Shown here in pieces: positions 10,597 through 32,512 of a DNA stretch of 64,000 nucleotides (position 1 is its first letter; each line of letters opens with the position of its first letter). The position numbers and the translations under genes are program-made. The stretch spans positions 17,448-81,447 of the forward strand of contig JBDTSG010000094.1 in assembly GCA_039931265.1 (NCBI GenBank), read 5' to 3'. A model generated the notes under the pieces. The model was not told the DNA's origin and searched no databases. It saw only the letters and a program-made list of their open reading frames with translations. This DNA comes from Flavobacteriales bacterium (GTDB lineage Bacteria; Bacteroidota; Bacteroidia; Flavobacteriales_F; PHOS-HE28).

Positions 10597-12201
10597 TCAC
10601 TCCTTCACCACGCGCGTGCGCATCACCTGCGCGCCGCGCTGCACCAGCACCGTGTAGGTGCCCGGTGAAAGTCGCAGGCCCAGTTCGTTGCCCAGACCCG
10701 CAGCCTCTTCCACCGTGCGTCCGCTGGCATCGATGATGCGCACCGCAACGGCAGCATCGGAAAGCGCTCCGCCACTGACCAAGTGGAAGGAGGTGGAGAA
10801 AAGTGAAGGGCAAGCAACGAGACCGGCTTCGGCTTCCGCGATCAGCCCGATGCCGGTGCCCAACGCGGGATCAACGCGCGCTACCACGGAGCCACGCACG
10901 GCCATGGGATCCACGGTGAACGGACCGAAGGTGAACGGATCGCCGGTGGTGGCCACGAGATGGCAGATGCCGTCGTGCGTTACTGCAAGGTCGTGCACCA
11001 CATCGAGGGAAACAGCGCTACCACCCTCGATATGCGAGCGAGCGATGCCCGCGTTATCGAAACTCAACAGGCTGACCTGCTCTGTCTGCAAACCGCCGGT
11101 GTTGGAGACCATGCCGTTGCCCCAATCCACACTGCCGGAAACATTGCCCAGCACGTAGGCGTTCCCATCGTCGTCCACGCCGAGACCCATCCCCTGCCCT
11201 ATTCCGAAACGACCGATGATGCCGGCTTGCGGAGGTTCAACGCCCCATTCGAACACGCCCGAGCTGTCGAGGCGGGTGAGGAAGAAGGAAGTGTTCCACT
11301 CCGGCGCATTGAAGTGCACGTTGCCCCACGATACCGAGTCCAGCTGCGATCCGAGCAGGTAGGCGTGATCTTCCCCATCGGCCACCACACGCGGACGTTG
11401 GAAGGTGACATCGTGCGCGATGTGCAACCATTGTGCATCGCCCGCAGCGTTCATGCGCGCCAGGAAGAAGTTGTATTGCTCCACCACCGGAAAGGTGGTG
11501 CCGTTGATCGACACGCTGGGTACCGAAGCCGAACCCGAGACGTACATGCCGCCCGACGGATCGAAACAGATGTTGCCGATCGTCTTGGTCTCGAGCAAAA
11601 GGCGCGTGATCACCGGAAGTCCGTCGTTATTGAGCCGCACCAGCTTGGAGCCGAAGAAGGTGGAGAGGGCCACCCAGAGCTGCCCTTGCGGATCGAACGC
11701 GAGCGAAGCCACGCTCACATCATCGATCTGCCCGCCGGACTTGTCGTGCTGCCACAGCAACAGACCGTCCGCATCGAACGCACAGATGAAGGATCCCATG
11801 CCCGTGTGGAACGGAGGCACGGCCACCGTGGGATCGCCATCGATCACCAAGTGCCCGAAGTAGCGCCCACCGATCACCACCGTACCGGCCGCGTTGCTGG
11901 TGATGCTCTCCACCTTCACCGAATCATTGAGCACGACGGTCCACACCGGATCGCCGTTGGCATTCAACCGGGAGAGCGAATTGCGGCCAAGGATGTCGTT
12001 CCCATAAAGGATCGTCGCGGAGTCGAGGCCTGCCACGTACACATGATCGGGATCGCGTGCGCAGAGCACATCGGTCGGGAGGCTCGGGTTCAAGTTGAAG
12101 GAATTCGGCGCGACCGTGAGCCACTGCACCTGTTGCGCGGAAAGGAGTTGCGGGAGGAGGCTTGCGGCGAGTGCGGCAGCGAAGAATGAAGTGCGGAACA
12201 T
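10597..12201 (-). CDS. Secreted protein with T9SS C-terminal sorting domain
   Basis: An ATG start gives a signal peptide (MFRTSFFAAALAASLLPQLLSAQ). A beta-rich body is followed by a C-terminus (…GTYTVLVQRGAQVMRTRVVKE) that is CTD-like. Confidence 0.75.
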   Translation of the reverse strand: MFRTSFFAAALAASLLPQLLSAQQVQWLTVAPNSFNLNPSLPTDVLCARDPDHVYVAGLDSATILYGNDILGRNSLSRLNANGDPVWTVVLNDSVKVESITSNAAGTVVIGGRYFGHLVIDGDPTVAVPPFHTGMGSFICAFDADGLLLWQHDKSGGQIDDVSVASLAFDPQGQLWVALSTFFGSKLVRLNNDGLPVITRLLLETKTIGNICFDPSGGMYVSGSASVPSVSINGTTFPVVEQYNFFLARMNAAGDAQWLHIAHDVTFQRPRVVADGEDHAYLLGSQLDSVSWGNVHFNAPEWNTSFFLTRLDSSGVFEWGVEPPQAGIIGRFGIGQGMGLGVDDDGNAYVLGNVSGSVDWGNGMVSNTGGLQTEQVSLLSFDNAGIARSHIEGGSAVSLDVVHDLAVTHDGICHLVATTGDPFTFGPFTVDPMAVRGSVVARVDPALGTGIGLIAEAEAGLVACPSLFSTSFHLVSGGALSDAAVAVRIIDASGRTVEEAAGLGNELGLRLSPGTYTVLVQRGAQVMRTRVVKE

Positions 12202-12504
12202 GATGAACGTGTTGTTGGTTGGACGGACGACCGATCGCGGATGGCGCCCCGGGTTCGTTGTTCGGGTGATGCGCTTGTCCATGGCCGTCCAAGGACAACA
12301 GGAACCGGTCAAGCCACTGGTTGGATGTTCTGGTTGGTGCGGAACAGGTTGGTCGGGTCCCCGGCATTGAACAGCAGCATCACCAAAACCTCCTTGTGGA
12401 GGATGCTCTCGGGCAGGAAGGGGCCGTTCGGCCCCTTCGACGAACGCACGCGCCTCCTTCCGATGTCGGTCCCATGTTTGTCACATCGGGAGAAAGGGCC
12501 GACC

Positions 12505-13248
12505 ATGCAAAAGCGATCCAAAATTCTTCTTGCATTGTGCAACGGCACGTTGACCGCAGCAGCGCAGTGCAGCATCGACCTTCCTACGGACACGGTACAC
12601 CTCTACCTGGGCTACGAACCGCTGACCTGCACCACGTTGGAACCTGTTGTGAACAGTGCCCGTTCCCACGAGCTGGTGTGGAGCAACGGCCTCACTGCTT
12701 CCGCGATCGACGTATGTGCGACCGCGAGCGAATGGTACTTCGTGGCGTTGATGGGCGACAAGGACTGCTACGCGGCTGATTCGGTTTTCGTGAACGTGGT
12801 GGATGCGCGCTGCGACGACGGCAAGGTGCGCATGTGCCATACCCCGCCGAACAACCCGTCCACCATGTACACCATCTGCGTAGACCGGGATGACGTAGCG
12901 ACCCATTTGGATCACGGATGCGTTCTGGGCGATTGCGGTTTCACCACGGGCTTGTCGGCAACCGAAGACCCACAGGGCTATACGGTGCTGGTGAGCATAG
13001 CACCGAACCCCATGGATGGCAGTGGCACTTTGCGTGTGGTCAGCCTCCGATCACAGCATGTGCTCGTGCGCGCCCTCGACCCGACCGGTCGCGAGCTCAT
13101 GGTCTTTCTCGATGAGGAACTCCAAGCGAACGAGGAGCGGCAGATCGCCATGGACGGCAGCAATTTCCCGCCGGGCTTGGCAGCGGCATGGATCGAAGGC
13201 CAGGGAAGATCCGAGCGCCGGGTACAGCCGCTCATCCTGGCACGCTAG
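12505..13248 (+). CDS. Cys-rich secreted protein with T9SS-like C-terminal domain
   Basis: A signal peptide (MQKRSKILLALCNGTLTAAAQC) is followed by many Cys residues. The C-terminal segment …IAPNPMDGSGTLRVVSL… has the PNP motif common at the start of T9SS CTDs. Confidence 0.65.
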   Translation: MQKRSKILLALCNGTLTAAAQCSIDLPTDTVHLYLGYEPLTCTTLEPVVNSARSHELVWSNGLTASAIDVCATASEWYFVALMGDKDCYAADSVFVNVVDARCDDGKVRMCHTPPNNPSTMYTICVDRDDVATHLDHGCVLGDCGFTTGLSATEDPQGYTVLVSIAPNPMDGSGTLRVVSLRSQHVLVRALDPTGRELMVFLDEELQANEERQIAMDGSNFPPGLAAAWIEGQGRSERRVQPLILAR

Positions 13249-13268
13249 GCCTGCATCAACGTTCCGCT

Positions 13269-14354
13269 TTACACCGGGCCATGCGGCCTTGGCTTGATAT
13301 ACCGGCTTGGATCCACGCCGATGGTTGTGCAGAGTTCGCGCACGGCCTTCTCCCGCTCCTTCATGTCCTCCGTATTGAAGCGCAAGAAGAAGGGCCGGTG
13401 GTCCCAATCGAACGCTGAAGCGGACTTTCCGTTCAGGAAATAGAGCATTGCAGCATAGTGGCAAGCGGTGCCGCCGTCGCGCTCCATGAGGCCGCGCAAA
13501 AGGGTGGTGATGATCTCCGGCGGATGGAACGACTCCACTTGGAGCAACGCCGTTGTGAGACCACCGGACCGGTCGCCTTGCTGCAAGACTTGAACAAGCG
13601 ACGCCGTACGCTGCGGTTGCGAGATCAGCTCCGGTGCGTACGAATGCACGGCCATCCGTACAGCGGAACTACCGCTGTTGAATGCTTGCTTCAAGGCCTC
13701 CTTCGCACGGTCCGTGCCCAGCGCAGCCAGTGCTTCAACGTCGCGCCAATCCTCATTCCTTCGTTGGATGAGCAGGCCCTCGATGGCGTTCCGTTCTTCC
13801 GCAGTCGCCTGTGGGATCAGCTCAAGATCATAGCCAATGCCATCGTGCCACTTGTCGTAGTCGATCTGCATACTTGCCTTGAAACGGGCCAAGACAGAGT
13901 TCGGATCATGGATCAGCTTTTCCCAGATGGCGCGCTCTGCCGGTGTGGCATCGCTGTACGCGGAACGTCCGGTATTCGGCACATTCGCTGGAGGATCGGG
14001 GATCGCGTTCGATGCGGCGTAACTCGCTTCAAGCTTCGCGCGGATGGCATCCATGTCCGGCTCCGGTTCGGGCGCATGCGGTGGTTCCAGCACGAAGAAG
14101 TGCCGCTTGTCATCGGTGAATTCACCGGAGTAGCTGCTGCTGTTGCGGTCGTAGAAATCAAGGTCGGCGGTATTCCCGCGTGGTCGTGAGGATACGGGCA
14201 GTGCCAGTTTGATGTATGCTCCGCACGGTGCCGCAGGAAAGCCGTGCGCGAACTCAGCGATCGAATTGCCTGCTGCGAGTTCAGCCATCACCAACTCGCG
14301 CAGCACGGCCGGGAATTCCGCGAACTCTTTCTCGTTCTCCTTCGGGATGCTCAT
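13269..14354 (-). CDS. Hypothetical cytoplasmic protein with HEAT/ARM-like C-terminal helices (last gene of unknown six-gene operon)
   Basis: The ORF is 361 aa with no signal peptide or TM segment. The C-terminal half consists of repeated helical hairpins (…ALAALGTDRAKEALKQAFNSGSSAVRMAVHSYAPEL…). Confidence 0.7.
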   Translation of the reverse strand: MSIPKENEKEFAEFPAVLRELVMAELAAGNSIAEFAHGFPAAPCGAYIKLALPVSSRPRGNTADLDFYDRNSSSYSGEFTDDKRHFFVLEPPHAPEPEPDMDAIRAKLEASYAASNAIPDPPANVPNTGRSAYSDATPAERAIWEKLIHDPNSVLARFKASMQIDYDKWHDGIGYDLELIPQATAEERNAIEGLLIQRRNEDWRDVEALAALGTDRAKEALKQAFNSGSSAVRMAVHSYAPELISQPQRTASLVQVLQQGDRSGGLTTALLQVESFHPPEIITTLLRGLMERDGGTACHYAAMLYFLNGKSASAFDWDHRPFFLRFNTEDMKEREKAVRELCTTIGVDPSRYIKPRPHGPV

Positions 14355-14374
14355 GGCGTGCGCATTGCTCAGCT

Positions 14375-15433
14375 TCAGGTCGGATCCACCCTTTCCTTGA
14401 AGTCGGCAATGACCGGGGCGAAATCCACACCGGTGCTTGCGAATTTCTCAGGGAGAACACCGAACATCTCCGTACCCCAGCGACGCAGATCCCTGAGGTT
14501 CTTCTTCGTGGTGTAGTTGGGTGCGGGAATGCGACCCACCCAACGCTGCATGGCCGAACGCGCTGGGCTGGCGAGACGGGCTTGCTCGGCAGGAGTCAGC
14601 GTTGCGCTGTAGAGGAACTCGACCGCAGGCTCCACATAGCCGGTCTCCAATTCGGTGGAGAGCCTTTCCGGAAAGTCAGGGTGTGAGCGCAGGCGAGCGG
14701 TGGCGGCCTCTCGTATTTCGCGGCTGGCATACCGGGTCGCCAAGCCGAGGAGCTCGTCGAAACCGGTCTGCGGATCAAGCGTGGATACCTTGGTGAGAAT
14801 TTCCTGCGATGATGGCCCGTTGAGGCGTTGAGCGATGTTCGCTATACCGCCGACACCCTCGGTGGCGAGCCAATAGCCGCCAAAGCCAACGCCGCCGACA
14901 AGGCACAGCCCGGCGCCAATGGTCCACGGTAACCGAACGGTTCGCGGAGAAATTCCGAGCTGCGGATTCAGGCTCAAGACGATCAGCAACATGGTGGCGA
15001 GGAGAACAAGGAGAAGCGGCAGATAATAGATGAAGCTCGGCGCGAATCCCGGCCGGATATAGCTGCCGACGAGCACGAACGAAACGACCGTCAGCGCGAG
15101 TGCCGCGGCCACGGTGAGCACGTAAAGGGCGGGACGGCCAAGTCGCAGCCAGTCAAATCCACCACTGCCGGTCACGCACAGCAACCCGGCCATCAGCAGC
15201 AGCCACATGGGGGTCAATATGTACAGGGCGGGCGTCACCCATGAAGAGTCGCTCAGGTGTTTCCGCGCGTATTCCCATAGCAGATAATTCAGCGGCACCA
15301 GGAAAATAAGGGCAGCGAGGGCGACGCAGATATTGCCGGTGGTTTGGTAGGGTGACATGGTGGGTGGGTTCATGTTTTCGGGGCACGCGCTATGCGACGA
15401 GATGATCCAATAGCTTGCCCAGCGCGGGATCAC
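14375..15433 (-). CDS. Membrane protein, tandem paralog of 15512-16783; 5' end apparently frameshifted
   Basis: The tracked ORF begins with GTG. An ATG that overlaps the upstream stop (ATGA, ~15513) encodes MNWLASILPAIITAALLGSCLWRISANG, which parallels MSWLASFFIAVISGILGLICTGFIASLCVDWFRISS of the upstream gene. That frame stops after 41 codons, and the similarity continues in the tracked frame (WASYWII vs GASGYYVIF). There are four or more TM segments followed by a soluble C-terminal domain. Confidence 0.65.
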   Translation of the reverse strand: MIPRWASYWIISSHSACPENMNPPTMSPYQTTGNICVALAALIFLVPLNYLLWEYARKHLSDSSWVTPALYILTPMWLLLMAGLLCVTGSGGFDWLRLGRPALYVLTVAAALALTVVSFVLVGSYIRPGFAPSFIYYLPLLLVLLATMLLIVLSLNPQLGISPRTVRLPWTIGAGLCLVGGVGFGGYWLATEGVGGIANIAQRLNGPSSQEILTKVSTLDPQTGFDELLGLATRYASREIREAATARLRSHPDFPERLSTELETGYVEPAVEFLYSATLTPAEQARLASPARSAMQRWVGRIPAPNYTTKKNLRDLRRWGTEMFGVLPEKFASTGVDFAPVIADFKERVDPT

Positions 15434-15511
15434 CGTTCGCAGAAATTCGCCAGAGGCAAGATCCCAACAGAGCTGCGGTGATGATAGCAGGGAGAATGGA
15501 AGCGAGCCAGT

Positions 15512-16783
15512 TCATGGGTTCTTCTCTAATGCGGACTTGTTCAGTTCATCGAGGATCACGCGCGCGTTCACCTCGATCTCGTCCAAGGCGTTGCCGGTCA
15601 CGCGATCGACCGTAAGGTCATGGATCTCCTTCACCGGTGGGCGACCATCCACACCGATACGCTGGTGGATCGTCCACCACGCCTGCTTCCAATAGTTGAA
15701 GCGCGTGTTCAAGTCCTGTCGCACTTGATAGAACGAGGCATCGTCACGCGTCAACGTGTTGAAGGCACGGATGCCGACGGCGATGGCATGCCCTTCAGCG
15801 AGTACGGCCTCCACGACTTCCGGCGCGGGCTGCTCCGGATACTCGGCCGCGCGCAAAGCATACTCGCGCGTGGTGGCCTCGGTCGATCGGATGAGTTCCG
15901 CCAATTCCACCTGGCGCTCGTTGATCGCCTTGATGACGATGGCGCTGCGTTCGTCGTTGGGCTCTTCGAACAGGAAGGGCAGCAGTTCGGCCAACGAAGG
16001 ATCGGCCTTCAGCGCAGCGAATTGCTCTGCGCGCACCACTTCAGGATCGGGCGGCGGTGGTTCGGGCTGCACCACTTGCACGCGCCAACGCATGTTGAAC
16101 TTCGCCTCTTTGGGCGGCTCCGGTTTTCCGGCATCCCAAGCCGGCTCCACCCATGTGCTCCACGTGGTGTCGCTCTGCTTCGGGTGCGCACGCAGAAAGA
16201 GGCCGAAGAGCAAACTGTTGTCCTTGTCGAACCGTACGGAGACGAATTTCTTGGAAACACTTGTCGTCAGCGGAACCGTGGCCGGCACCACCCAGTGTCC
16301 ATCGAGGAGTTGCGCTTCTTGCAGCCGTAGGTCGTGACCCGGTAAGCGACGGCCACCCGGCAGATACACCTCCGCAGTGGCGCCGTATTCATCCAACGTG
16401 TCGGGGAGAACGAAGCCTTTGGGGCAACGCACTTCGATGTCGAGTTTCAGCGGACGGCCGTCGATCTCCGGAGCGATGTCAGCGCTGAGCCGGCACAGTG
16501 CGAGCACGATCAGCGAGATGCCCAAGATGGCGCCACATGCGACACCTACGCCTTTGAGGAACCCGGGTGAGGCACCCGCCGCCACATAGCGCGCAGCCAC
16601 CATGCCGATGATGAACGACACAACACCACCGAGCAATGCGATGAAGATGACGTAGTAACCGGAAGCACCTTCGCGGCTGGAGATCCGGAACCAATCCACA
16701 CAAAGGCTCGCGATGAAGCCCGTGCAAATGAGGCCGAGGATCCCGGATATCACGGCGATGAAGAAGGAAGCGAGCCAGCTCAT
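15512..16783 (-). CDS. Membrane protein (N-terminal 3-4 TM helices plus ~300-aa soluble domain), paralog of 14375-15433
   Basis: The start is ATG. The TM segments lie in the first 100 aa. It belongs to no recognisable family. Confidence 0.7.
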   Translation of the reverse strand: MSWLASFFIAVISGILGLICTGFIASLCVDWFRISSREGASGYYVIFIALLGGVVSFIIGMVAARYVAAGASPGFLKGVGVACGAILGISLIVLALCRLSADIAPEIDGRPLKLDIEVRCPKGFVLPDTLDEYGATAEVYLPGGRRLPGHDLRLQEAQLLDGHWVVPATVPLTTSVSKKFVSVRFDKDNSLLFGLFLRAHPKQSDTTWSTWVEPAWDAGKPEPPKEAKFNMRWRVQVVQPEPPPPDPEVVRAEQFAALKADPSLAELLPFLFEEPNDERSAIVIKAINERQVELAELIRSTEATTREYALRAAEYPEQPAPEVVEAVLAEGHAIAVGIRAFNTLTRDDASFYQVRQDLNTRFNYWKQAWWTIHQRIGVDGRPPVKEIHDLTVDRVTGNALDEIEVNARVILDELNKSALEKNP

Positions 16784-16843
16784 GGGCGGTGGTGCGTTAG
16801 GTTGAAGTTCGATCCCGCGCCGGTGTGTTCCCGTGGAGGTCCA

Positions 16844-17113
16844 CTAGAGCAGCGCAATGAAGAAAACGATACCCATGACCACCACAGGGATGAACGCGAT
16901 CAACGCCGCCCAAGCGATCTGGCCATTGCGCATCAGAACGATGCTGGCGATCACGCATACCAATGCAAGGATGCTGAGCCCACCAGCCCAGAGCTTCATG
17001 GAGCGGATCTGTTCGGGACCCGCGTTCGCTGCTCCTGCCGCATGGAACACGAGCATCAGGAGCGTCGTTCCTACGGTACACACCATGGCGGCGATGGGCA
17101 ACAGGTACTTCAT
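16844..17113 (-). CDS. Small two-TM membrane protein (89 aa)
   Basis: There are two hydrophobic helices. The ORF sits in a 370-bp gap inside the co-directional operon. Confidence 0.5.
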   Translation of the reverse strand: MKYLLPIAAMVCTVGTTLLMLVFHAAGAANAGPEQIRSMKLWAGGLSILALVCVIASIVLMRNGQIAWAALIAFIPVVVMGIVFFIALL

Positions 17114-17152
17114 GGTCGTCGTTCGTGGTTCCGGTTGGTTGGTGCAAGATCA

Positions 17153-18664
17153 TCAAGCCCCGGGGTCGCTGCCGTAATCGGACACGAGTTGCTCCCGGAA
17201 TTCATCGCGCTCCTCCGAGAGCGCTGTGCCCTCCCCACCGCTAGTGGCCATGCTGGCATAGAAGAAGATGAAGTGACTGGACTTCTTGAACGCGGCAAGA
17301 GCACCAGGTGCATCACCCGCGCTCTTCAGTCGCAGCATTCGCAACCGGTACATGTCGGCGGTCGCGTGGGCAAAGGCCAGATGCGGGACACCATCACGGA
17401 TCACTTGCTCCGCCTCTTCCAAGCGATCCTGCTGCTCCAAGGCCACCGCTTTGTTCCACCATGCTGGCAGATCTTTCGGGGCTGGCACTGATGCAGGCGC
17501 TTCTCGACGTTCAGGCTCGAAAGAGCAGCTATTGAGGATAAGCTCAGCAAGGTTGCACGCTGCGGTCCTACGCTCAGGTGAAGTGGTGACGCGGGCGCGG
17601 AGCACCATTTCATCGGTCCGGTGTGGGAAGAGCATGTGGTACTGCTCGATCGCCTGGCCACCGACCGCGATGTTGCGCACGCCGAGCGCTTCGATCTTGC
17701 CGTATGCAAAGCGCATACACTCCGGCTCCGGGTAGTCCTTCCTCACCTGCGCTTCCAATTCGTTCAGGAGTTCGTCATAGTCACGGCCTTCCGTCGCCAT
17801 GGTGTTGAGGCTGATCTGCACCTCGTCCTTCGGATCCAGCACCAGCGTTCGTTTTCCGTCGTCGATCACGTACCATCCGTAAGGGACGTTGAAGTGCGCG
17901 AGGATCGCTCCCCCAGCGAGCGTCGCGACTTTCGTTGCATCGTCCGTGGCGATCACCTTCGGGACAAGTCCGATCCCCTTATCGCGCAGGTTCGCGTTCA
18001 CCTTGGCTTCCGGATCCAGCGAGGCCGCTGTGCCAGCGAACGCGAAGTCAGCGAACGTGGGATCCTTCTCGGCTACGGGCTCTGGTGGTTCGGGTGCCTC
18101 GGACGCGAACTTGTGCGCTTCGATGTCCGGATCCACCGCTGGAGGTGGCGCTGGCGTTGCGGTCTCTTCGGTGAAGCGCGAACCCTTGGGTGTTTCCAAC
18201 GCGAACGAACCGATCATGGCGAACCATGCTTCGCGCACAGCATCGGCGAGCAGTTCGGGAGCTGTCAACGTGAGGTTGATCAGGCGTCCGCCATCCTCCA
18301 AGAACGCGAAGCGCACCACCATCGTTCCCAGTTCCGACGGTTGCGTGGCCTCCCCCATCATGGCCGTTACACCTGCGATCCGGGCAGGGCCGATCGCACG
18401 GGCCGTGAGCTGGTTGTTGTTCAGGTTGTACCATGCCCAATCGTGCAAGGTGCCATCATCGTATGCTGGTCGCGCGGCGAAGGCGAACACGATGGCTGCG
18501 TGCGGGGCAGTGACCAACGCGAGTGGAAAAAACGAGGTCGGGTTCGAGAAGTCCGGTTCTTCCGGCGGCAGTTCATGCGCGATCCAATCCACAGGGATTT
18601 GCGCGCTGAAGCCCAACTCAGCAACGCGATCAGTGAACTTCCGCAGTGAGAGATCCATTGGCAT
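17153..18664 (-). CDS. Hypothetical soluble protein (503 aa), operon gene 2
   Basis: No TM segment is present. The central part is Pro/Glu-rich, and no P-loop or catalytic motif was seen. The start directly abuts the stop of the upstream gene (18664/18665). Confidence 0.7.
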   Translation of the reverse strand: MPMDLSLRKFTDRVAELGFSAQIPVDWIAHELPPEEPDFSNPTSFFPLALVTAPHAAIVFAFAARPAYDDGTLHDWAWYNLNNNQLTARAIGPARIAGVTAMMGEATQPSELGTMVVRFAFLEDGGRLINLTLTAPELLADAVREAWFAMIGSFALETPKGSRFTEETATPAPPPAVDPDIEAHKFASEAPEPPEPVAEKDPTFADFAFAGTAASLDPEAKVNANLRDKGIGLVPKVIATDDATKVATLAGGAILAHFNVPYGWYVIDDGKRTLVLDPKDEVQISLNTMATEGRDYDELLNELEAQVRKDYPEPECMRFAYGKIEALGVRNIAVGGQAIEQYHMLFPHRTDEMVLRARVTTSPERRTAACNLAELILNSCSFEPERREAPASVPAPKDLPAWWNKAVALEQQDRLEEAEQVIRDGVPHLAFAHATADMYRLRMLRLKSAGDAPGALAAFKKSSHFIFFYASMATSGGEGTALSEERDEFREQLVSDYGSDPGA

Positions 18665-20170
18665 CTATTTCCAAAGTGAGGTGGTGGAGAGCTTCCCTGT
18701 TGTGTTGTCCACGATCACCAGGATCGGCTCGCTCACCTTGTCCGGCACCATGGGCCGAGGGCCGACAAAGGCCATGGACTTCGCGCCCGGAAGGATCTGC
18801 GAAAGCAGGAAGCGATCGATACCGGTATCCACTTTCCAAATGATCTTCCCATCGGTATCCACACGCGCTACCACAAGCGTTCCGCTCAGGCCGGGCTTGG
18901 ATGTGAACTTCACCAGAAAGCCATCGGGGTCAGCCAGGCGGATCGGTTCCGACGTGTCATCCATCCGGAGGAATGCGCCATTGAGGAAGGTGTCCACACC
19001 AAGTGCGGTCATGCTGATGATCCGGTGGTGTCCATCGCTCGTATCGGGATCGAGCACACCGCGATGGAAGCGGCGCTGCTCCTTGGCATCATCGGCTTGC
19101 ACGACGCGCTTCAACCAGGACTTCGGTTTGAAATGACGTGCCGCTTCATCCGGCGAATGAAGGCCGAGCCATGCACCGTTCGAAGTGAAAACACCAGCGG
19201 CAAGGAAATACTCCGGCTTGGGTCCGAGCGGCCATTGGTTGTTGCGAACGACCTCCACGGGAACGGCTTTCAACGTCCCCGGTTCGAACTCCATGGCGCT
19301 CTGCTGATCGCGCGCGGTGGAACGCAGTCGCCCTCGTATCTCCATTCCCCGTCCGTCTTCCCACCAGACCGGATCGAGGGTTGGATTCACGCTACGGAAG
19401 TCGTCGGCCCCAACAACGTCGAAGGTCTTCAGGTCCACTCCGCCAATGCCGACCACATCGAACCAAAGGGTCTTCCCATCGCTGCCAAGGATCTTCGCGA
19501 GGCTGAAGGAATTCCCTTCCAACTCACCGGTGACTGGGGTCAAGCGCGGATCGGAGCCATCCAGTGGGACAAGGAACACGCTGACGCGATAACGGTCCTT
19601 CGACGCATCGCGATGCAAGCTGGGTGTGTAGGGCACCAACGACTCGATGAGTGTAGCGATGTGCGTGTCCGTTCGCACGGCAAGCCCGATCGGCGTGCCC
19701 GGACCCGGGTCGATCACCAGCACCTTGCTCTTGAACCACATGAACCCAGCAGCGATCAAACCTACTACCAGCACAGCAAACCCAAGTTTCCCACGGAGCT
19801 TGGCATACCGGCCCATCCACTCAGCGGCCTCTGCGCGTTTCAGTGCAGGGGTTGTGGCCCCACGGATGTGGATGTATCCGGCAGCATCGTCCAGTTGTGC
19901 AATGCTCCCCGGCGCCTTCTGGCGAACAACCTCATGGGCAACGAAGCGCAGGATGTCCGCGCGGCGATCAACGGCCCAAGGATGCTGCTGGCGCCAAGTG
20001 TCGGCGGTGCCCACCGTAACGATCGCGATCACATCATCGCCGCCGAACTCCCAGTAAAAGGTGATGCTGCCGGCGGGATCATTGTAGATAACCGAACCGG
20101 AGCGACCCTGCTCCTCGATCCGCACGCTCCGGGAAATCGCTCCTCCGTCGTTCGCCATCCTGCTCGTCAT
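18665..20170 (-). CDS. Membrane-anchored hypothetical protein (501 aa), first gene of six-gene operon
   Basis: A ~125-aa N-terminal cytoplasmic region is followed by one TM (LGFAVLVVGLIAAGFMWF) and a ~360-aa extracytoplasmic domain. It matches no recognisable family. Confidence 0.7.
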   Translation of the reverse strand: MTSRMANDGGAISRSVRIEEQGRSGSVIYNDPAGSITFYWEFGGDDVIAIVTVGTADTWRQQHPWAVDRRADILRFVAHEVVRQKAPGSIAQLDDAAGYIHIRGATTPALKRAEAAEWMGRYAKLRGKLGFAVLVVGLIAAGFMWFKSKVLVIDPGPGTPIGLAVRTDTHIATLIESLVPYTPSLHRDASKDRYRVSVFLVPLDGSDPRLTPVTGELEGNSFSLAKILGSDGKTLWFDVVGIGGVDLKTFDVVGADDFRSVNPTLDPVWWEDGRGMEIRGRLRSTARDQQSAMEFEPGTLKAVPVEVVRNNQWPLGPKPEYFLAAGVFTSNGAWLGLHSPDEAARHFKPKSWLKRVVQADDAKEQRRFHRGVLDPDTSDGHHRIISMTALGVDTFLNGAFLRMDDTSEPIRLADPDGFLVKFTSKPGLSGTLVVARVDTDGKIIWKVDTGIDRFLLSQILPGAKSMAFVGPRPMVPDKVSEPILVIVDNTTGKLSTTSLWK

Positions 20171-20246
20171 TGTGCACCTCTCCGTTGCGCTGTGAAAGTC
20201 ACTTCAAGAATAGCGAAGACCGAAGATCCGCTTCCTTGGTACCGTC

Positions 20247-21134
20247 TTGGACAAGACTTCCTCCCCCATCCGTTGGACCAGTTATGGCAAGGCGTTCCTG
20301 GCCACCGTGCTGTGGGGTTGTTCGTTCATCGCCATACGGTTCGCGCTGGCCACGGCAACACCCTACGGTGCGGTGTGGATGCGCAACCTCCTTGCGGTGG
20401 CGCTGCTGATCATCATACTGAAAGCGCGCAAGCAGGAATTGCTTCCCGAACGAGCGGACCGCGGTCGGGTGGTGCTCTTGGGCTTGGTGCTTGGTGTTCA
20501 CCTGATCACGCAAGCCTATGCCGTGCAGCGTACCGCAACCATGCGCGCCGGTTGGATCATCGCCTTCATTCCGGCCGTGGTGGCAGTGGGCGCATGGTTC
20601 TTCCAGCGCCAGCGGTTGCGCGCGATCGGCTGGGTCGGGATCCTGGTGGCCTCCGGTGGTGTGCTCGTACTCACTTCCACACGACCTGCACAATTCGCCG
20701 AAGCGGGCTTGGGGGATCTGCTCATGTTCGCCACCACCTTCAGTTGGGCCGCGTACACTTTGCTCACCGTGGGCCCCGCGCGACGCAGTGGCGGCTTGCG
20801 TGTTGCGGCAGGTGCCTTGCTCTTCTCCCTTGTGCCCGCGCTGATCATGGCCGCCATCGAGGGTACGTGGACCGCGCCGCCGGATACCCCATCGATCATT
20901 GCGTTGGTCTTTCTCGGCGCTGGTTCGAGCGCCATTGCCATGTGGACCTATTCCGACGCCGTGGCTGAGCTCGGTCCGGAACGCAGCGCTGCTTTCCAGT
21001 ACGTACAACCGCTCGTGACTTTGGTGGCAGCCTTCACCTTGCTTGCAGAACCCATTACCCACGAACAGCTTATCGGCGGGCCGATCGTGCTGGCCGGCGT
21101 GTGGCTGGTGCAGCGTGGAAAGAAGGGGTTGTAA
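20247..21134 (+). CDS. EamA/DMT-family transporter
   Basis: Ten TM segments form two EamA-like halves (…LATVLWGCSFIAIRFAL… and …TFSWAAYTLL…). The start is TTG per the track, and the next in-frame ATG is far downstream. Confidence 0.8.
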   Translation: MDKTSSPIRWTSYGKAFLATVLWGCSFIAIRFALATATPYGAVWMRNLLAVALLIIILKARKQELLPERADRGRVVLLGLVLGVHLITQAYAVQRTATMRAGWIIAFIPAVVAVGAWFFQRQRLRAIGWVGILVASGGVLVLTSTRPAQFAEAGLGDLLMFATTFSWAAYTLLTVGPARRSGGLRVAAGALLFSLVPALIMAAIEGTWTAPPDTPSIIALVFLGAGSSAIAMWTYSDAVAELGPERSAAFQYVQPLVTLVAAFTLLAEPITHEQLIGGPIVLAGVWLVQRGKKGL

Positions 21135-21150: not shown

Positions 21151-23478
21151 CTAAAGCACGATCAACCTTCCCTGCTGCACCACATCCGCAGCTCGCCGCA
21201 GCACGAAGGTGTAAGCGCCGGGCTGCCAGACCCGCAGATCGAAGCGCTGCGTGCCCGAGGCAAGCGACCGGCGTTCCAGTTCTCGACCGGTCACATCCAC
21301 CACCGCGAAGCTGAACGGGCCGGTACCTGTCAATGTCCCGTTGAAATGGAACAACCCTTCGCCGGGGTTCGGGAAACAGCTCAACATCCCTTCTGCCGCA
21401 ACGGAAGTGATGCCGACGTTGGTGCAAACGCCCGGGATGTTCGCATCCAGCCAATCCAAGCGGCGGGCGATCCAACCTTTCAGCGTGTCCAGCTCGGCGG
21501 TGTAAGTGGTGGCGCACGCGTTCACTTCGGGCGCAGGGCCGCTCATGCCCAGGATGGGCCATTTCTGGAAGTGCCGTGCTTGTGCGTTCTGCACGCGCTC
21601 GCCAACGCTATCGATGAAGGCGAAGATGTTCGCGGTGTCGAGCACGGTGGTGCGGTAATCGTCATAGGCACAGCGCAGTTCGTTGTTGAAGGTGCTGTCC
21701 TGCAACAGACGCACGTACCAACCAGTGGAGTAGTTATCGGTGAAGCAATCATTGATGAGGTGCGCCCAGCCTGAGCCATCGGTGTTGTCGAAGAGATCGC
21801 AAGTCGCGAGGTCCTTCCAAGCCCAGTCGAAATCCCAGACCGGTCCGGCCTTCAGCTTGCCGCCATTGCTGTACTGGTCCTTGTGGAAGAACACGCTCTT
21901 CTTGAAACCGTCGTTGTTGCGGGAGACTTCATTCACCAAGAAGTAGTCGATGAACGACTTCACATCCATGTATTTACGGTAACCCAAGCTGGTATCGGCG
22001 AAGGCCGGGGAGTAAAGTGCAGTTTCCAAACTGTCCACGTAGCTGGCGATGTAAGTGCGCTGCGGCTGGGTGAGGGTGTCGGGTTGGGGGTAGTAGTAAA
22101 CGAAGTGCACATCGAAGCCGGGGTGATCGATGGGCGAGTAGTTGCTCTGGAAACTGTTGTTGGCGTCCCAGTAGTTCTGCGTCAGGATGTAGCCTCCAGT
22201 CACCTCATCGCCACTGTTCTCCGATCCGGTGAGCGTGGCAATGTCAACGCGCCCATTGTCGCGCTTGATCTTCTCGCCGAAGAGATAGATCCCCTTGTAC
22301 ACACTATCGATGAGCACCTCGCATAGGTGCGTGCGCGGCGCATACTGGCCCATGCCCGAAGAGAGAGAGAACGCAAGTTGATTGCGCAGCAACGATCGGT
22401 CGTTGTAGTTGCTCAGCATCACCCAGTCGTGCTCCTGCGGCATGCCGAGGATACTGACGTTGTTGTTCGTACCCAAAGCGGTGCGCGTTTCCAAGCCATA
22501 AGGCCGTTGCGGGTATCCGGCTGAAGAAGCGCCGCGGATCTCGATCCCGATGTTGCCGTTGTAGACGTTCGGCGGATCGGTGACATAGGTGAGGTTGCCG
22601 GGACCGTTGTACTTGACCTCCATCAAGCAATCGATCTTGGGTTCGTCCACGATGGTCTGGCCCAAGGTGTTGATCAGCACAATGGGCAGCTCCGAGCTTT
22701 CCAGATGCACGGATCCCGGGTCGGTGACACAGAGTTCGAACTGCCCTTCGCCCCCACCGTACCCGAAGGCCTGTATGTAGAGTGTTTCGCCAATGGGGAG
22801 GTCGTTGGCCATGACGAACGAAAAATAGTCGGTGCCACTGTCGTCATCGCAACCGCGCCAAGTGAGGTCGACGCAACTGGTACCGGTCCAGAGGGCGATG
22901 CCGGTGTCGTTCAATCCGCCGGTATCGTACGTGCCTACGATCACGTTCCCCGAGGGCGGCACCGGCATGGCATACCAGAGGTCGCCACCTTGGTATTCCG
23001 CACAGCCGCCATTGATACCCGTGCCGAGAACGCCCGTGTTGTCGGCGATCACGCAATCAAGTGTATCGATAGGGAAAGCGGCGCATGGCACGGTACCGGG
23101 GGCAGCAATGGCGTTGCAATCACCGACACCGGTGAAAACGATACCCGTACCGGGGTCTGGTCCGTCGGCGAAAACGACATTGCCCAATGGATCGAAGAGG
23201 ATGTACGTGTTCTCGTTCTCCCAATCCATGGCGGTATAGTCCAGCACCAGCACATCACCATTGCAAATGGTGAAGGTGGCATTGCTCCCTGCGCCCGTTG
23301 CCGCGAAGGTGCCGATCGGACTTCCGTTGATGGAGATCTCCAACGTCCCCCCGTTCCAGCCGTCGCCATAGCTGTCGTCCATGGTCAGGATATAGTCGCA
23401 GCATTGCGCACTGGCCTGCGCGGCGAAGAGGCTGACCCCGAGCATCGCCGATTGCACCCTCCTCTTGATCATCCCCAT
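21151..23478 (-). CDS. CotH-family (atypical kinase) secreted protein with T9SS C-terminal sorting domain
   Basis: A signal peptide (MGMIKRRVQSAMLGVSLFAAQASAQ) precedes a long region (…ILTQNYWDANN…VYYYPQPDTLT…VNEVSRNNDGFKKSVFFHKDQ…GPVWDFDWAW…) that matches the CotH fold. The C-terminus (…GAYTFVLRRAADVVQQGRLIVL) is CTD-like. Confidence 0.8.
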   Translation of the reverse strand: MGMIKRRVQSAMLGVSLFAAQASAQCCDYILTMDDSYGDGWNGGTLEISINGSPIGTFAATGAGSNATFTICNGDVLVLDYTAMDWENENTYILFDPLGNVVFADGPDPGTGIVFTGVGDCNAIAAPGTVPCAAFPIDTLDCVIADNTGVLGTGINGGCAEYQGGDLWYAMPVPPSGNVIVGTYDTGGLNDTGIALWTGTSCVDLTWRGCDDDSGTDYFSFVMANDLPIGETLYIQAFGYGGGEGQFELCVTDPGSVHLESSELPIVLINTLGQTIVDEPKIDCLMEVKYNGPGNLTYVTDPPNVYNGNIGIEIRGASSAGYPQRPYGLETRTALGTNNNVSILGMPQEHDWVMLSNYNDRSLLRNQLAFSLSSGMGQYAPRTHLCEVLIDSVYKGIYLFGEKIKRDNGRVDIATLTGSENSGDEVTGGYILTQNYWDANNSFQSNYSPIDHPGFDVHFVYYYPQPDTLTQPQRTYIASYVDSLETALYSPAFADTSLGYRKYMDVKSFIDYFLVNEVSRNNDGFKKSVFFHKDQYSNGGKLKAGPVWDFDWAWKDLATCDLFDNTDGSGWAHLINDCFTDNYSTGWYVRLLQDSTFNNELRCAYDDYRTTVLDTANIFAFIDSVGERVQNAQARHFQKWPILGMSGPAPEVNACATTYTAELDTLKGWIARRLDWLDANIPGVCTNVGITSVAAEGMLSCFPNPGEGLFHFNGTLTGTGPFSFAVVDVTGRELERRSLASGTQRFDLRVWQPGAYTFVLRRAADVVQQGRLIVL

Positions 23479-23944
23479 GTGTGTTGCTGTGTGCGGCGGA
23501 ACGCGGCGCGATCCGGCCGACAACCACTGTCCGCAGGCAAACTTAGCCGAACGGTAACAAGGCAACGGGCGCGACTACTCCTTCGCGAACCGCACCATCC
23601 GCAGCTGCCCGTTCAGCGCTTCGACATGAAGGACTTAAAGCCCGGTGGGGATCCGATCCAAGGGAATACTGCTCCCGGCAACGCGGTCCTCCTGCACGAT
23701 GGCACCGGCTCCGTTCAGAATGCGACAGTGCTGTACTCGTGCGCCACCCCAAGCCACTTCGATCATGTCGATGGCGGGTGAAGGATGGACGATCTTGATA
23801 CAATCCCCCCCGACCAAGCGATCAGCAGCGGTCGCTCCCACGGAAAGCCCTGCGCAATGATCATCGATGATGCGCACATCAAGGATCCCGACAGCAATGC
23901 TCTCCACATGGTGATGGATCTTCCGACCAATGACCGCCGAACGA

Positions 23945-26518
23945 TCACCTCACCACGATCCGTTGCACCAGCGTTGCACCGGCGTTCGCAATGCGCATAA
24001 CATACACCCCTGCTTCACTGCTCAGGTGGATGTTGGTGACAGTACCGGAGATGGATCCGCTCTGCACCAGTTTGCCAGCAACATCGAGCACCTCATACAA
24101 AGCACCGGGTACAACGCTACCACCCAAGACCAAGATGATCGGTCCGTTGGTCGGGTTGGGATGCAGCGAGAACGCGAAGGGTACGTTGCCCGCTATACCC
24201 GTACTGAGCCAGAGGAAGACATCGGAAGTGCTCGTGCAGCCGTTCGCGTCGGTTACCGTTACCGTGTAGTCGCCGTTGGCCAGCGCGATATGGAAGACAT
24301 CGGTGGCTCCCTGGATCAATACACCATCCAAATACCATTGGAAGGAACCACTGCCTGTGGCGAGCAACGAATCGGTGGAAGAAGAGATGACCGGAACCAC
24401 TGGCAGTGGGTTCTCCGTGACATCCGCAGTAGCCACTGCTTCCGAGGAACAACCGTTCGCGCCTGTAACCAGCACGCTATACATACCCGTGGCATCGGCT
24501 GTGAATTCGGTGGAATCAGCACCGGTAACATCGCTGCCGTTCCACGACCATTGGTACGTAGCACCAGGGACGGTATCGATGGAAAGAACGACCGATCCAC
24601 TGTCGCAGAAGGAAAGCGGTCCATCCGCGTTGATCGTTGGTGCATCGGGCAGGCTGTTCACCACCACCATGATCGAGATGGACGGATCCGAAGAACAGTT
24701 GTTCGTATTCGTGGCAACCACCGTGTAGATCCCCGCTGCGTCCACCACGAGCGAAGGGCTGTCGGCCCCAACGATCGGCGACTGATCAATATACCACTGG
24801 TAGGTCGCGCCGGGCACGAAGCTCGCATCCAGGACCACTGAGCCGCCATCGCAGAAGATGGTATCACCCGCTGCGGACACCAAGGGAGCGTCAACACTCT
24901 CCACAGTGAGCGTAGCAGCATCCGTCGTGAAGCTGCAACCCGTGTTGGCATTCGTTGCAACGAAGGTGTATGACCCTGCCAGCGATGCATCGATGGTCGT
25001 TCCTGTTTCGCCGGGCACGGGTGCATTGTTCAAATACCACTGGAACGTAAGGGGGCTTTGTCCGGAAAGGTCAACCCCGGTGAACTGCGCGGTAGCACCT
25101 GCGCAAATCGTGTATGCCAGCGTATCGAGCTCCTGCATCGGCGGCAAATTCACTTCCACGGCAATGGTGTTCGATGTTGCGCTTCCGCAGGCGTTGTCCA
25201 CGACCACCGTGTAGTCACCCGCCTCAGCCACAGGCAGGCTTGCACCGGTTGCCCCACCGATGTCGGTGCCGTCCAACTGCCATTGATAGGAAGGTCCACC
25301 GACGGCGGTGAGCATCAGCGTATCGCCCGTACAGATCGTCGTGGGTCCACCGGCACTGATCGCAGCCGTGGTGGCACCACCGATGGTGATATCGAAGCCA
25401 TTATCGGTCCCGATGAAATCCGGACTTGTCGAGATGACACGGATACGGTAGCCGTTGCCGAGCGGGGTATTGCCGGGTATGGTCGCGGTGATCGAGCCGG
25501 AGGTCGTCGAAATGGTATCACCGATGTCAACCGGGTTCGTGAAATCGCCGCTCGCATCCGAAAGCTGCGCCGTGAAGTGGTTGGCTTGGATCAGGAAGCC
25601 GCCCGCGTTGTAGGCACCGGTGGCCTCATAGGGAACACTCACCGTTGCGCCGGGACAAATGGTGGCGGCCAACGGCTGCACCACTTCAATGCTGCGGGGT
25701 ACATCGTAGTAATAGATCGCGTTCACCACCTGGAAACCGAAGATCTCCGTGGTATTGATCTGCAACACTGGCACGCGCAGTCCCTGCGCCAGCCATTTGT
25801 ATTCGTGCACGATGGGGCGGTTAATGGCGAACCCGGTACCCAGCGAATCCAAGCCGATGGTATCGCTGATCGTCAGGGTGGTATTCACACGGAGCACATC
25901 GAACGAACCGGCGGGTGTCGTGATCGCCCCCCAACCGTCCACATCGTTCGCGCGGATCTGGCGGTAGCCGTAGTAGCCCAAGCCGGGGAGGTCGATGTTC
26001 CATGAAGAATAGGACGATGTTGCAGCGCCGAATTGCACGGGCAACTCATAGATCACATCGTGATCCTCGAAAATGATCGGCACAGGGATGCCGCTCAGCT
26101 CCACACCGAAGCCGACTGCCTTATAAGTTGATGGGCTGCGGTAGTAGAACGTGTAAGGATTCTCGATCGGGAGCAGTTGGTTGAAGGGGATGTCGGCACC
26201 GCGCTTCGCAACGTTGGCCCTGTTCGGGTTAAAGAATAGATCGGCGTAGGTGATCGCATAGATGAAGTTGGTGGAAGCCACTGTGAGATACTCTGCCGTA
26301 TCGCCCGTGTTCACGGTAAGGTTCGAGAAATCCCAAACATGCGCCGCACCCGTGGTGGCGTAATCGATGAAGGGATTGGTGAAAGCCCTGGTGCGGACGA
26401 GTTCATCGTTCGCGTGGGGCATTTCGTTCTGGCCGACAGTGATCTGGCCCGAGGCAAAGAAGGGGGCACAGATGAGTGCAAGGGCGGCATAAATTTCAGC
26501 GGTAGTGGTACGGAGCAT
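23945..26518 (-). CDS. Large secreted adhesin-like protein with tandem Ig-like/PKD-type domains and T9SS C-terminal sorting domain
   Basis: A signal peptide is followed by repeated ~90-aa beta-sandwich units carrying Cys pairs (…ICTGDTLMLTA…, …FCDGGSVVLDA…, …FCDSGSVVLSI…). The C-terminus (…GVYVMRIANAGATLVQRIVVR) is CTD-like. Confidence 0.8.
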   Translation of the reverse strand: MLRTTTAEIYAALALICAPFFASGQITVGQNEMPHANDELVRTRAFTNPFIDYATTGAAHVWDFSNLTVNTGDTAEYLTVASTNFIYAITYADLFFNPNRANVAKRGADIPFNQLLPIENPYTFYYRSPSTYKAVGFGVELSGIPVPIIFEDHDVIYELPVQFGAATSSYSSWNIDLPGLGYYGYRQIRANDVDGWGAITTPAGSFDVLRVNTTLTISDTIGLDSLGTGFAINRPIVHEYKWLAQGLRVPVLQINTTEIFGFQVVNAIYYYDVPRSIEVVQPLAATICPGATVSVPYEATGAYNAGGFLIQANHFTAQLSDASGDFTNPVDIGDTISTTSGSITATIPGNTPLGNGYRIRVISTSPDFIGTDNGFDITIGGATTAAISAGGPTTICTGDTLMLTAVGGPSYQWQLDGTDIGGATGASLPVAEAGDYTVVVDNACGSATSNTIAVEVNLPPMQELDTLAYTICAGATAQFTGVDLSGQSPLTFQWYLNNAPVPGETGTTIDASLAGSYTFVATNANTGCSFTTDAATLTVESVDAPLVSAAGDTIFCDGGSVVLDASFVPGATYQWYIDQSPIVGADSPSLVVDAAGIYTVVATNTNNCSSDPSISIMVVVNSLPDAPTINADGPLSFCDSGSVVLSIDTVPGATYQWSWNGSDVTGADSTEFTADATGMYSVLVTGANGCSSEAVATADVTENPLPVVPVISSSTDSLLATGSGSFQWYLDGVLIQGATDVFHIALANGDYTVTVTDANGCTSTSDVFLWLSTGIAGNVPFAFSLHPNPTNGPIILVLGGSVVPGALYEVLDVAGKLVQSGSISGTVTNIHLSSEAGVYVMRIANAGATLVQRIVVR

Positions 26519-31669: not shown

Positions 31670-31672
31670 GCG

Positions 31673-32512
31673 CTACGAGGCTTTGCGCTGTTTCGTGGCC
31701 GTGGTTGCCTTTCCCTTGACCGCTGTCTTAGTGTTGTTCTTCGCCGCTGATTTTCCGGAAAGACTGGCTTTCAACACCGCCATCAGATCATCGGTCGGTT
31801 TGCTGTGCACTACTTTCATCGGCGTGGCCTTGGGGCCCTTGCCCTTGGCTTTGGCACGGATCATTTTCATCAACGCGGCCGTGTATTCGTCCTTATAGCG
31901 CTTGATGTCGAAGGTCCCCGCCCCTTGGTCGATGAGCTGCATGGCGAGCTTCAGTTCATTGGGCGCGATCTTCTCCACCTTCGGGAGTTTCAGGTCATCG
32001 ATCGGGCGCACTTCCTGCGCATAGCGTAATTGATTGAGGATCAGTACGGGTCCATCCGGTTGCAGTAAGGCCGGATGTTCTTTTGTGCGCATCACGAAAC
32101 TGGCGATGCCCACTTTGCCGCTCTTTCGCAAAGCTTCGCGCAGCAAGGCGTAGGCCCGTGATCCACCCTTGTCCGGTTCCAAGTAATAGGGCTTCTCGAA
32201 GTACTTGCCTTCCACCTCTTCCTCCTCCACGAAATCGTGGATGGTGATGACGTCGCTTTTCTCCATGGCAGCGCTCTTCAGGTCCTTGTCCTCAAGCACC
32301 ACATACCTGCCTTCCAAGTTGAAGGCTCGGACGATGCGTTCATAAGGAACTTCCTTTCCGGTGTCCTCGTTCACGCGATGGAAACGGATCTTGGCTTTGT
32401 CCTTTCCGTCCAACATGTCCAGATCCAATTCGCTCTCCTGCGTTGCGCTGAACAGGCGCACGGGGATCGTTACAAGGCCAAAGCCTATAGTGCCTTTCCA
32501 AAGGGGGCGCAT
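31673..32512 (-). CDS. ku: Ku DNA end-binding protein (NHEJ)
   Basis: The sequence MRPLWKGTIGFGLVTIPVRLFSA…FHRV…YEP matches the bacterial Ku core. A Lys-rich C-terminal tail is present. Confidence 0.9.
   Translation of the reverse strand: MRPLWKGTIGFGLVTIPVRLFSATQESELDLDMLDGKDKAKIRFHRVNEDTGKEVPYERIVRAFNLEGRYVVLEDKDLKSAAMEKSDVITIHDFVEEEEVEGKYFEKPYYLEPDKGGSRAYALLREALRKSGKVGIASFVMRTKEHPALLQPDGPVLILNQLRYAQEVRPIDDLKLPKVEKIAPNELKLAMQLIDQGAGTFDIKRYKDEYTAALMKMIRAKAKGKGPKATPMKVVHSKPTDDLMAVLKASLSGKSAAKNNTKTAVKGKATTATKQRKAS

Follow-up and report, generated by a model that had tools for sequence, protein, structure and literature searches.

Six consecutive genes without a recognisable family in a Flavobacteriales genome raise the question of whether such an array represents one dedicated machine encoded by an operon, a loose set of exchangeable parts, or a chance run of orphan open reading frames (ORFs). 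The array occupies positions 13269-20170 of the window, i.e., the whole stretch of 64,000 nucleotides analysed here (contig JBDTSG010000094.1, positions 17,448 to 81,447), which comes from a Flavobacteriales metagenome-assembled genome (MAG). Its genes, called g1 to g6 in the order of transcription (locus tags ABI599_11365 to ABI599_11390), are all annotated as 'hypothetical protein'; the exact sequence is on record for four of the six products, each being the sole member of its own 90%-identity cluster. The locus is one case of a widespread, horizontally exchanged, modular neighbourhood and not a fixed operon-encoded machine. The single six-gene operon envisaged by the first-pass annotation, which was made from the DNA letters, does not hold as a fixed unit, since composition and order vary and the members are often solitary. 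Its view that these are linked genes of undescribed families rather than a chance run of orphans is upheld by repeated same-strand adjacency in distant phyla, and the association of the families is real.

The loci compared comprised 84 that carry g2, a few contigs reached via homologues of g6 and g1, and, again via g6, 80 loci from metagenomes; 163 were left once duplicates were removed. Hidden Markov models (HMMs) of the six window families, split by domain, and of further recurrent families were searched against all six-frame ORFs. At least two families were present in 83 of the 163 loci, at least three in 34, and at least four in 20, and 947 of the 990 pairs of domain hits were on the same strand. 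The gene neighbourhood, the conservation of which had been left as a check, recurs across phyla: homologues are adjacent on the same strand in Verrucomicrobiota, Acidobacteriota, Planctomycetota, Burkholderiales, and Bacteroidota. The pool amounts to about twelve families without a Pfam domain (the six of the window and about six more), which are mostly membrane-bound and occur in shuffled subsets in at least six phyla.

The shuffling is not without order. In Verrucomicrobiota and other phyla a semi-conserved arrangement was found, f1-f17-g2-small transmembrane (TM) protein-g5-f23/f2-g4-g6-g1, where f1 is a soluble protein of 142 aa, f17 has two TM segments, and the slot of the small multi-TM protein is taken by g3, f26, or f51. 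The fullest example, an Opitutaceae contig (L085), has eleven co-directional Pfam-less genes of this type. Neighbouring genes abut or overlap by 4 nt. Two cores recur, namely g2 with a multi-TM gene after it, and a g4/g5-type membrane protein followed by g6. Members also share domains: the C-terminal domains of g4 and g5 (g4C and g5C) are homologous, the N-terminal domain of g6 (g6N) is found on several proteins, and the C-terminal domain of g2 (g2C) is found on proteins of family f8. In a Limisphaerales MAG (L041, 13419-15884), an 822-aa ORF runs from a g6N-type domain and f24 through a TM segment into a g1-type periplasmic domain, and this fusion ties two families of the cluster together in the Rosetta-stone sense.

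The anchor of the comparison is g2 (17153-18664, minus strand; 503 aa, or 501 aa if it starts at ATG 18658). Full-length homologues with 45-76% identity across phyla are found in Verrucomicrobiota, Acidobacteriota (Bryobacteraceae, Paludibaculum), Planctomycetota, Gemmatimonadota, Burkholderiales (Aquabacterium, Pelomonas, Inhella, Ideonella), and a few Bacteroidota, and all are devoid of a Pfam domain or a name. The AlphaFold2 (AF2) model of g2 (predicted local distance difference test, pLDDT, 88) shows two beta-rich domains (residues 1-153 and 236-379) besides a Pro/Ala linker, which is disordered, and a C-terminal set of five helices. The beta-rich domains are tandem copies of the PsbP/Mog1/DUF1795(Eag) fold, and the five-helix domain is TPR/MIT-like with an invariant loop, ATSGGEGxALSxERDxF. 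The fold resembles those of PsbP, Mog1, EagT6, and SciW, with sequence identity to the PsbP/Mog1/DcrB/LpqN superfamily of 11-17%; it also matches Tsi3 and TplEi, immunity proteins of type VI secretion systems (T6SS). An N-terminal hydrophobic signal was found in none of the 24 aligned homologues, and g2 is predicted to be cytoplasmic because no homologue carries a signal peptide. Likewise, its hydropathy shows no TM-type profile, the sole scored stretch (residues 45-63) corresponding to beta strands in the model.

Judged from the alignment of these 24 homologues, g2 is under strong constraint, with about 65 columns invariant across phyla, the ATSGGEG loop included. A conservation of 45-76% between phyla together with an invariant loop is unusual for an accessory gene and implies a conserved partner or target. 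The gene is divisible. In some lineages (L042, L085, L086, and related loci) it is split into two genes, with a 4-nt overlap in L085 and L086. Both PsbP-like domains stay with the first (362-396 aa), and the second, f8 (about 224 aa), joins a new N-terminal domain of about 110 aa to the ATSGGEG helical domain. The gene directly 3' of g2 has at least two TM segments in 17 of 37 loci, versus 168 of 982 background genes (17%; Fisher p=7e-5). The genomic context of g2 is stable within genera (the Aquabacterium group, Paludibaculum), and in Burkholderiales the order PAS histidine kinase, globin, g2, type II secretion system is constant across genera.

The last gene, g6 (13269-14354, minus strand; 361 aa), is usually also the last gene of the array elsewhere, and it belongs to a family of more than 1300 clusters at 90% identity. 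Its AF2 model (pLDDT 86) has a small alpha/beta N-domain (g6N, about 1-110) and all-helical repeats (about 132-353), and no hydrophobic segment was found; the protein is predicted to be cytoplasmic. The designation 'HEAT-like' given at first sight is supported by the profile of the family, which matched nothing in the PDB but engineered HEAT-like alphaRep proteins (E=5e-11); fold searches returned generic HEAT/ARM matches only. The g6N domain had no structural or sequence match in the fold and profile searches. It is about 60% identical across phyla, and it occurs also alone (116-133 aa) or joined to a different C-terminal domain, f24. The strongest pair of the whole data set is g4 immediately upstream of g6, seen in 33 loci.

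For the product of the first gene, g1 (18665-20170, minus strand; 501 aa), hydropathy predicts a single TM segment (about 128-150), preceded by a cytoplasmic N-domain (about 125 aa) and followed by a beta-rich domain of about 350 aa in the periplasm. Homologues with 45-74% identity were found in Flavobacteriales, Verrucomicrobiota, and Betaproteobacteria. It gave the sole notable sub-threshold match among the six proteins, to NF041516 (the PA2928 family), with 34.2 bits against a cut-off of 70, a bit score reported for the g1 of the window alone among the family members. Over the g1 family, 23 of 27 members match this model (best E=4e-17). Going by these profile matches, g1 is truly, if distantly, homologous to PA2928 in its periplasmic domain and is not a member of that family, from which it differs by the added cytoplasmic N-domain. 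PA2928 is itself a hypothetical gene, the loss of which alters the colistin minimum inhibitory concentration via pmrAB-dependent modification of lipopolysaccharide (PMC4244539).

Between these lie three genes for membrane proteins. The 89-aa product of g3 (16844-17113, minus strand), which had been described as a two-TM protein, has three hydrophobic segments by hydropathy, and its homologues are directly downstream of g2 in 12 loci. The g4 product (15512-16783, minus strand; 423 aa) has three N-terminal TM segments and a beta-rich domain (together g4N, 1-240) followed by the helical g4C; an exhaustive HMMER search found 679 representatives of the family at 50% identity. The g4N module exists alone (about 240 aa) or joined to a C-terminus, either g4C or an unrelated one of about 350 aa that has no Pfam domain, and a Pfam scan of ten long variants gave nothing relevant. 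The g5 product (14375-15373, minus strand; 332 aa from ATG 15373, within a longest ORF of 14375-15433) combines 4-5 TM segments with a helical domain at its C-terminus, and its tblastn homologues are at 37-63% identity. The first-pass annotation had taken g4 and g5 as two paralogous multi-TM proteins with soluble domains of about 300 aa. Both are multi-TM proteins with a common C-terminal domain, and the soluble part of g4 is of that size (about 320 residues); that of g5 has about 150 residues. Paralogy over the whole length was ruled out by BLASTP, in which the match (E=0.006) was confined to the TM region. The homology is limited to the C-terminal domains of about 130 aa, which hhalign relates with 96% probability (E=2e-9), and among 19 domain families compared in this manner no other relationship exceeded 50% probability.

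The spacer between g4 and g5 holds a small ORF that deserves separate mention. An ATGA overlap noticed near 15513 is present at 15515-15512; it is not the start of g5 and is in another frame from g5. Its ATG, which overlaps the stop of g4, opens just a 41-codon ORF (15515-15390, minus strand), the peptide of which, MNWLASILPAIITAALLGSC, resembles the N-terminus of g4, MSWLASFFIAVISGILGLIC, and the sequence at 15498-15518 (21 nt) repeats the start of g4 (16766-16786) with 95% identity. This ORF looks, on these two similarities, like the relic 5' end (of g4N type) of a g4-type gene or cassette that was lost or deleted. That g5 might be a frameshifted g4 paralogue, given the ATGA and the similar 41-aa peptide, was considered and ruled out, as g5 homologues start at the internal MNPP methionine. 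The start of g5 at ATG 15373, with the N-terminus MNPPTMSPYQ, is fixed by homologues in other phyla that begin with MNPPAMSPYQ or MTPSAMSPSQ. Because the homologues begin at the position matching ATG 15373, g5 has 332 aa and the g4-g5 spacer measures 138 bp.

As regards the layout, the six co-directional, tightly packed ORFs were seen correctly, as was their divergence from an EamA transporter gene (20247-21134). The 18665/18664 abutment is likewise there, the stop of g1 touching an ATG of g2; the deposited annotation and the homologues place the g2 start two codons further in, which leaves 6 bp between g1 and g2. The spacers range from 0 to 138 bp with the g5 start at 15373, and not from 0 to 80 bp as first given. 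The GC content of the cluster equals that of its flanks. The 76 bp between g1 and the EamA gene (20171-20246, divergent and of no particular strand) are the only plausible promoter region of the array. The single sigma-70-like match in 13000-20500 agrees at 9 of 12 positions and lies on the minus strand (20196-20169), the count being no higher than in shuffles and the scan not covering Bacteroidota promoters. Two terminator-like matches, both within the coding sequences of g3 and g4, are below the number in shuffles, and no common promoter motif was visible by eye in 64 regions upstream of g6 genes.

How such arrays change can be seen in the closest relative, a contig (L093) with 74-82% nucleotide identity and common flanking genes (MFS and Ig_7/T9SS, i.e., type IX secretion system). 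In this contig g1 (74% identical in amino acids) is followed after 235 bp by g6 (79%), g2-g5 are absent, and g6N-like and g4N-like genes are located divergently upstream. The spacer at 11468-11701 contains a 5' fragment of f1, 26 aa that are 77% identical to a verrucomicrobial f1 (E=5e-11), and then a stop. Two independent relics of gene 5' ends are thus known at junctions, the g4-like one of the window and that of f1 in L093. Tandem paralogues are also found, of g2 in L060, g5 in L019, g4 in L069, and f1 in L171. The mosaic loci, the solitary members, the composition of L093, the relics, and the tandem paralogues imply ongoing gain, loss, and rearrangement of cassettes. Against the L093 orthologues, the ratio of nonsynonymous to synonymous substitution rates (dN/dS) is 0.23 for g1 and 0.14 for g6, similar to the 0.19 of the flanking MFS gene; by this comparison of coding sequences, selection on g1 and g6 is ordinary purifying selection.

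The statement that no family signature is recognisable is confirmed by the libraries: none of the six proteins reaches a Pfam, NCBIfam, PADLOC, or PHROGs cut-off, PADLOC models gave no match even at E<=1, and profile and structure searches assigned no gene to a housekeeping family. Catalytic, NTPase or nucleotide-binding, toxin, DNA-binding, and mobile-element signatures were found in no member. A Pfam scan of ten proteins of the partner families gave nothing relevant; a 146-aa neighbour in L086, outside the defined families, contains DUF3592, a domain of unknown function. The families of g2, g1, and g4 had no match in a sequence-profile search of the PDB. An origin from a mobile element was rejected. 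Relatives of g2 were found in none of 50,697 phage records and none of 72,556 plasmids, and those of g2 and g6 in none of 2.9 million IMG/VR contigs. The region has no tRNA or Rfam element and no compositional anomaly, no integrase is among the flanking genes of the window, and the search for intergenic repeat families in the window gave only the single 21-nt relic.

A link to the T6SS was also considered and rejected. In an Acidobacteriota MAG (L088, 1-6759), a full-length g6 homologue (52%) is located directly after tssC-hcp-tssA-tssE-tssF-tssG, with a PAAR-like gene about 10 kb away. It is the only T6SS adjacency among more than 160 loci and was not reproduced in the others. A tblastn search with the L088 T6SS proteins found no T6SS genes in the window, 87 other loci, and 80 metagenome loci, a weak test as the probes came from a single cluster, and PAAR, VgrG, Rhs, or T6SS core genes were absent from the window and from the loci with listed gene tables.

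What these proteins might do together is best approached through g2. The tentatively favoured reading, which argues by analogy, is that the locus encodes a network of non-enzymatic binding proteins associated with the inner membrane, modular in make-up, in which g2 is an Eag-like hub and which probably protects the envelope. It draws on the linkage, the order, the coupling of neighbouring genes, the L041 fusion, the shared domains, the g2 fold, the multi-TM neighbours, the constraint, and the lack of enzymes. In this network the task of g2, as hub or holder, would be to bind interchangeable partners (g3, g4, g5, or their alternatives) by their TM helices or by segments close to the membrane, on the model of Eag chaperones, which clamp the TM helices of effectors. 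Binding of effector TM domains by Eag chaperones has been described (PMC7773334). The g6 protein could serve as a cytoplasmic HEAT adaptor that docks via its conserved N-domain and works with g4/g5-type proteins, and g1 might supply a periplasmic beta-rich domain for sensing or binding. The members together would then constitute a binding network across the inner membrane, with a likely role in envelope protection or homeostasis, such as an immunity-like buffering of membrane- or periplasm-directed damage by binding and without catalysis. The envelope role is hinted at because PA2928, the distant relative of g1, affects colistin susceptibility (PMC4244539). In its sharpest form, the proposal reads that a cytoplasmic, pseudo-dimeric, Eag-like g2 organises TM helices outside the T6SS, in an envelope system found across phyla; this is possible but doubtful.

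Several observations weigh against this reading. Solitary members are frequent: g2 stands alone in about 36 of 86 loci (about 40%), mainly in Burkholderiales, g6 in 18 of 31 metagenome loci of at least 8 kb, and full-length g6 homologues (50-57% identical) in five of seven sampled contigs. An obligate complex is excluded because members are so often solitary. The composition differs even between relatives that are about 80% identical in nucleotides. The g2 protein fails the Pfam model of DUF1795/DcrB (PF08786), reaching 11.8 bits (E=0.27) where 27.2 bits are needed. Its fold likeness is to a generic binding scaffold, PsbP scoring above the Eag proteins, and the proposed interaction with TM helices is drawn by analogy, the excess of multi-TM proteins encoded after g2 being its only indirect evidence. 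The sole grounds for deducing a protective role are that enzymes are lacking and that the pattern is mosaic. The soluble domains of g4 and g5 may be cytoplasmic or periplasmic.

The main rival explanation, serious although unlikely, is that the locus is a polyimmunity or orphan-immunity array, in which the immunity protein of each gene would work by itself against an interbacterial toxin of its own, active in the cytoplasm, membrane, or periplasm. Horizontal transfer and recombination would have gathered the genes into arrays, and their products would not cooperate physically. The mosaic composition, the frequency of solitary members, and the presence or absence of g2-g5 between close relatives would all follow naturally, as would the truncated gene 5' ends at junctions and the tandem paralogues. 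The folds are of the binder type throughout, g2 matching Tsi3 and TplEi, and the acidobacterial g6 homologue directly after tssG fits as well. The proteins themselves are less accommodating: with 330-500 aa they are large, their order is semi-conserved, two members are found fused, and the purifying selection is ordinary. Neither the six proteins nor the ten of partner families match Pfam or NCBIfam models of recognised immunity families (Imm, SUKH, SMI1, and others), and no toxin domain or gene family recurs near the members among the Pfam-annotated neighbours in the approximately dozen loci with gene tables. The recombinase, tRNA, and repeat scaffold known from recombinase-associated immunity islands are missing as well. 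Between the envelope-associated complex and the immunity or defence cassette offered by the first-pass annotation, the evidence does not choose; a canonical anti-phage system is the less likely of the two because PADLOC gives no match, g2 and g6 have no phage or viral relatives, and g2 is absent from plasmids.

TM proteins accompanied by soluble proteins with repeats are a common layout of defence systems. An abortive-infection system against phages, with HEAT/TPR sensors and multi-TM effectors that disrupt the membrane, would fit this layout and was among the options raised at first, and the patchy distribution is consistent with horizontal transfer. It is nevertheless improbable, as PADLOC and PHROGs give no match, g2 is absent from the phage and plasmid collections and both g2 and g6 from IMG/VR, the neighbours are ordinary chromosomal genes rather than a defence island, and the context of g2 is stable within genera. 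Still less probable is a T6SS effector-chaperone locus, in which g2 would be a fused Eag-type chaperone and g4 and g5, with their N-terminal TM segments, secreted effectors. Against it are the lack of PAAR, VgrG, Rhs, and T6SS core genes in the window and listed loci (within the limited sensitivity of probes from one cluster), the failure of g2 against the DUF1795/DcrB model, the start of g4 with MSWLAS and no prePAAR motif, and the homology of g4C to g5C with no toxin signature. That the six genes are orphans in chance juxtaposition, or spurious ORFs, is hardly credible: all are annotated as hypothetical and the four on record are sole members of their 90% clusters, but for every ORF there are full-length homologues by the hundred that are under purifying selection, and the families co-localise in distant phyla. 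The remaining probability is assigned to functions not yet imagined.

The surroundings of the array in the window are ordinary chromosomal genes, including the EamA gene, a CotH protein, T9SS cargo, MFS and AI-2E transporters, and Ku/LigD. The CotH-domain protein (804 aa; 21151-23565, minus strand) is located beside EamA and has a T9SS-type C-terminus by eye. A giant CotH/LTD/LamG protein is found upstream of a verrucomicrobial cluster (L003, 1-3064), and the presence of CotH proteins near both clusters is probably a coincidence. Predicted T9SS cargo around the cluster is encoded at 12241-13248 (plus strand), 23945-26518 (minus), and 58379-59266 (minus). Por_Secre_tail was detected in two of the cargo proteins, that of 23945-26518 slightly under the Pfam cut-off; the 335-aa protein at 12241-13248, whose gene is convergent with g6, gave no Pfam match and looks T9SS-like at its C-terminus by eye only. 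Ku (279 aa) beside a full-length LigD (phosphoesterase, ligase, and primase-polymerase) at 29000-32512 (minus strand) constitutes a complete bacterial non-homologous end-joining pair. Further away, 38984-46363 (plus strand) encodes a signalling protein of 2459 aa with HTH_17, CheB methylesterase, CheR methyltransferase, many PAS domains and one GAF domain, ending in HisKA-HATPase and a receiver domain.

The comparison gives about a dozen widespread, unnamed protein families without a Pfam domain a shared genomic context. Should the Eag-like reading be true, chaperones that hold TM helices would extend well beyond the T6SS, and chaperoning or scaffolding of this kind would be a general principle in bacteria, put to use here in a new type of envelope protection or immunity. 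Should the immunity reading be true, new immunity families would be present in understudied phyla of soil and freshwater. Cultured carriers make these proposals directly testable, for example, Paludibaculum fermentans, Pelomonas parva, Aquabacterium humicola, Inhella proteolytica, and Pseudaquabacterium terrae.

With respect to known systems, no description of this neighbourhood was found in the literature on PA2928 and on DUF1795/Eag chaperones. At the level of sequence models, none of the approximately twelve families is in Pfam, PADLOC, or NCBIfam at the cut-off, and no solved structure is a sequence relative. The Eag (DUF1795) chaperones, such as EagT6/PA0094, EagR, and SciW, share the PsbP/Mog1-like alpha/beta sandwich fold with g2 and are structurally further from it than PsbP and Mog1. 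In contrast to them, g2 is a tandem protein of 500 aa with an added TPR/MIT-like domain, falls below the Pfam model, and is often encoded alone; they are linked to a prePAAR-TMD-PAAR effector and a T6SS, neither of which was seen near g2 in the window and 87 loci by a tblastn of limited sensitivity. PsbP, DcrB, and LpqN are exported proteins or lipoproteins, whereas g2 has no signal peptide and combines two copies of the domain with a helical one; the PsbP family proper consists of exported (lumenal or periplasmic) single-domain proteins, and g2 is neither. The g6 protein resembles the PBS-lyase-type HEAT-like repeat proteins (alphaRep, CpcE/F, YibA) in its repeated helical hairpins, by profile and by fold, but it is under the Pfam HEAT thresholds, has an unmatched N-domain of 110 aa, and shows no lyase context. 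The closest likeness in layout is to the polyimmunity or acquired interbacterial defence islands, which are similarly co-directional, tightly packed, heterogeneous, and non-enzymatic; these too vary in composition, spread horizontally, and contain tandem paralogues and relics of genes. The array of the window differs from them in having no known immunity families, recombinase or integrative element, or intergenic repeat scaffold, in that no toxin domain was seen in the loci with gene tables, and in its much larger proteins, semi-conserved order, and fusion between members. At the level of the system, the locus is of no known kind, and at the level of folds it reuses the PsbP/Eag, TPR, and HEAT scaffolds.

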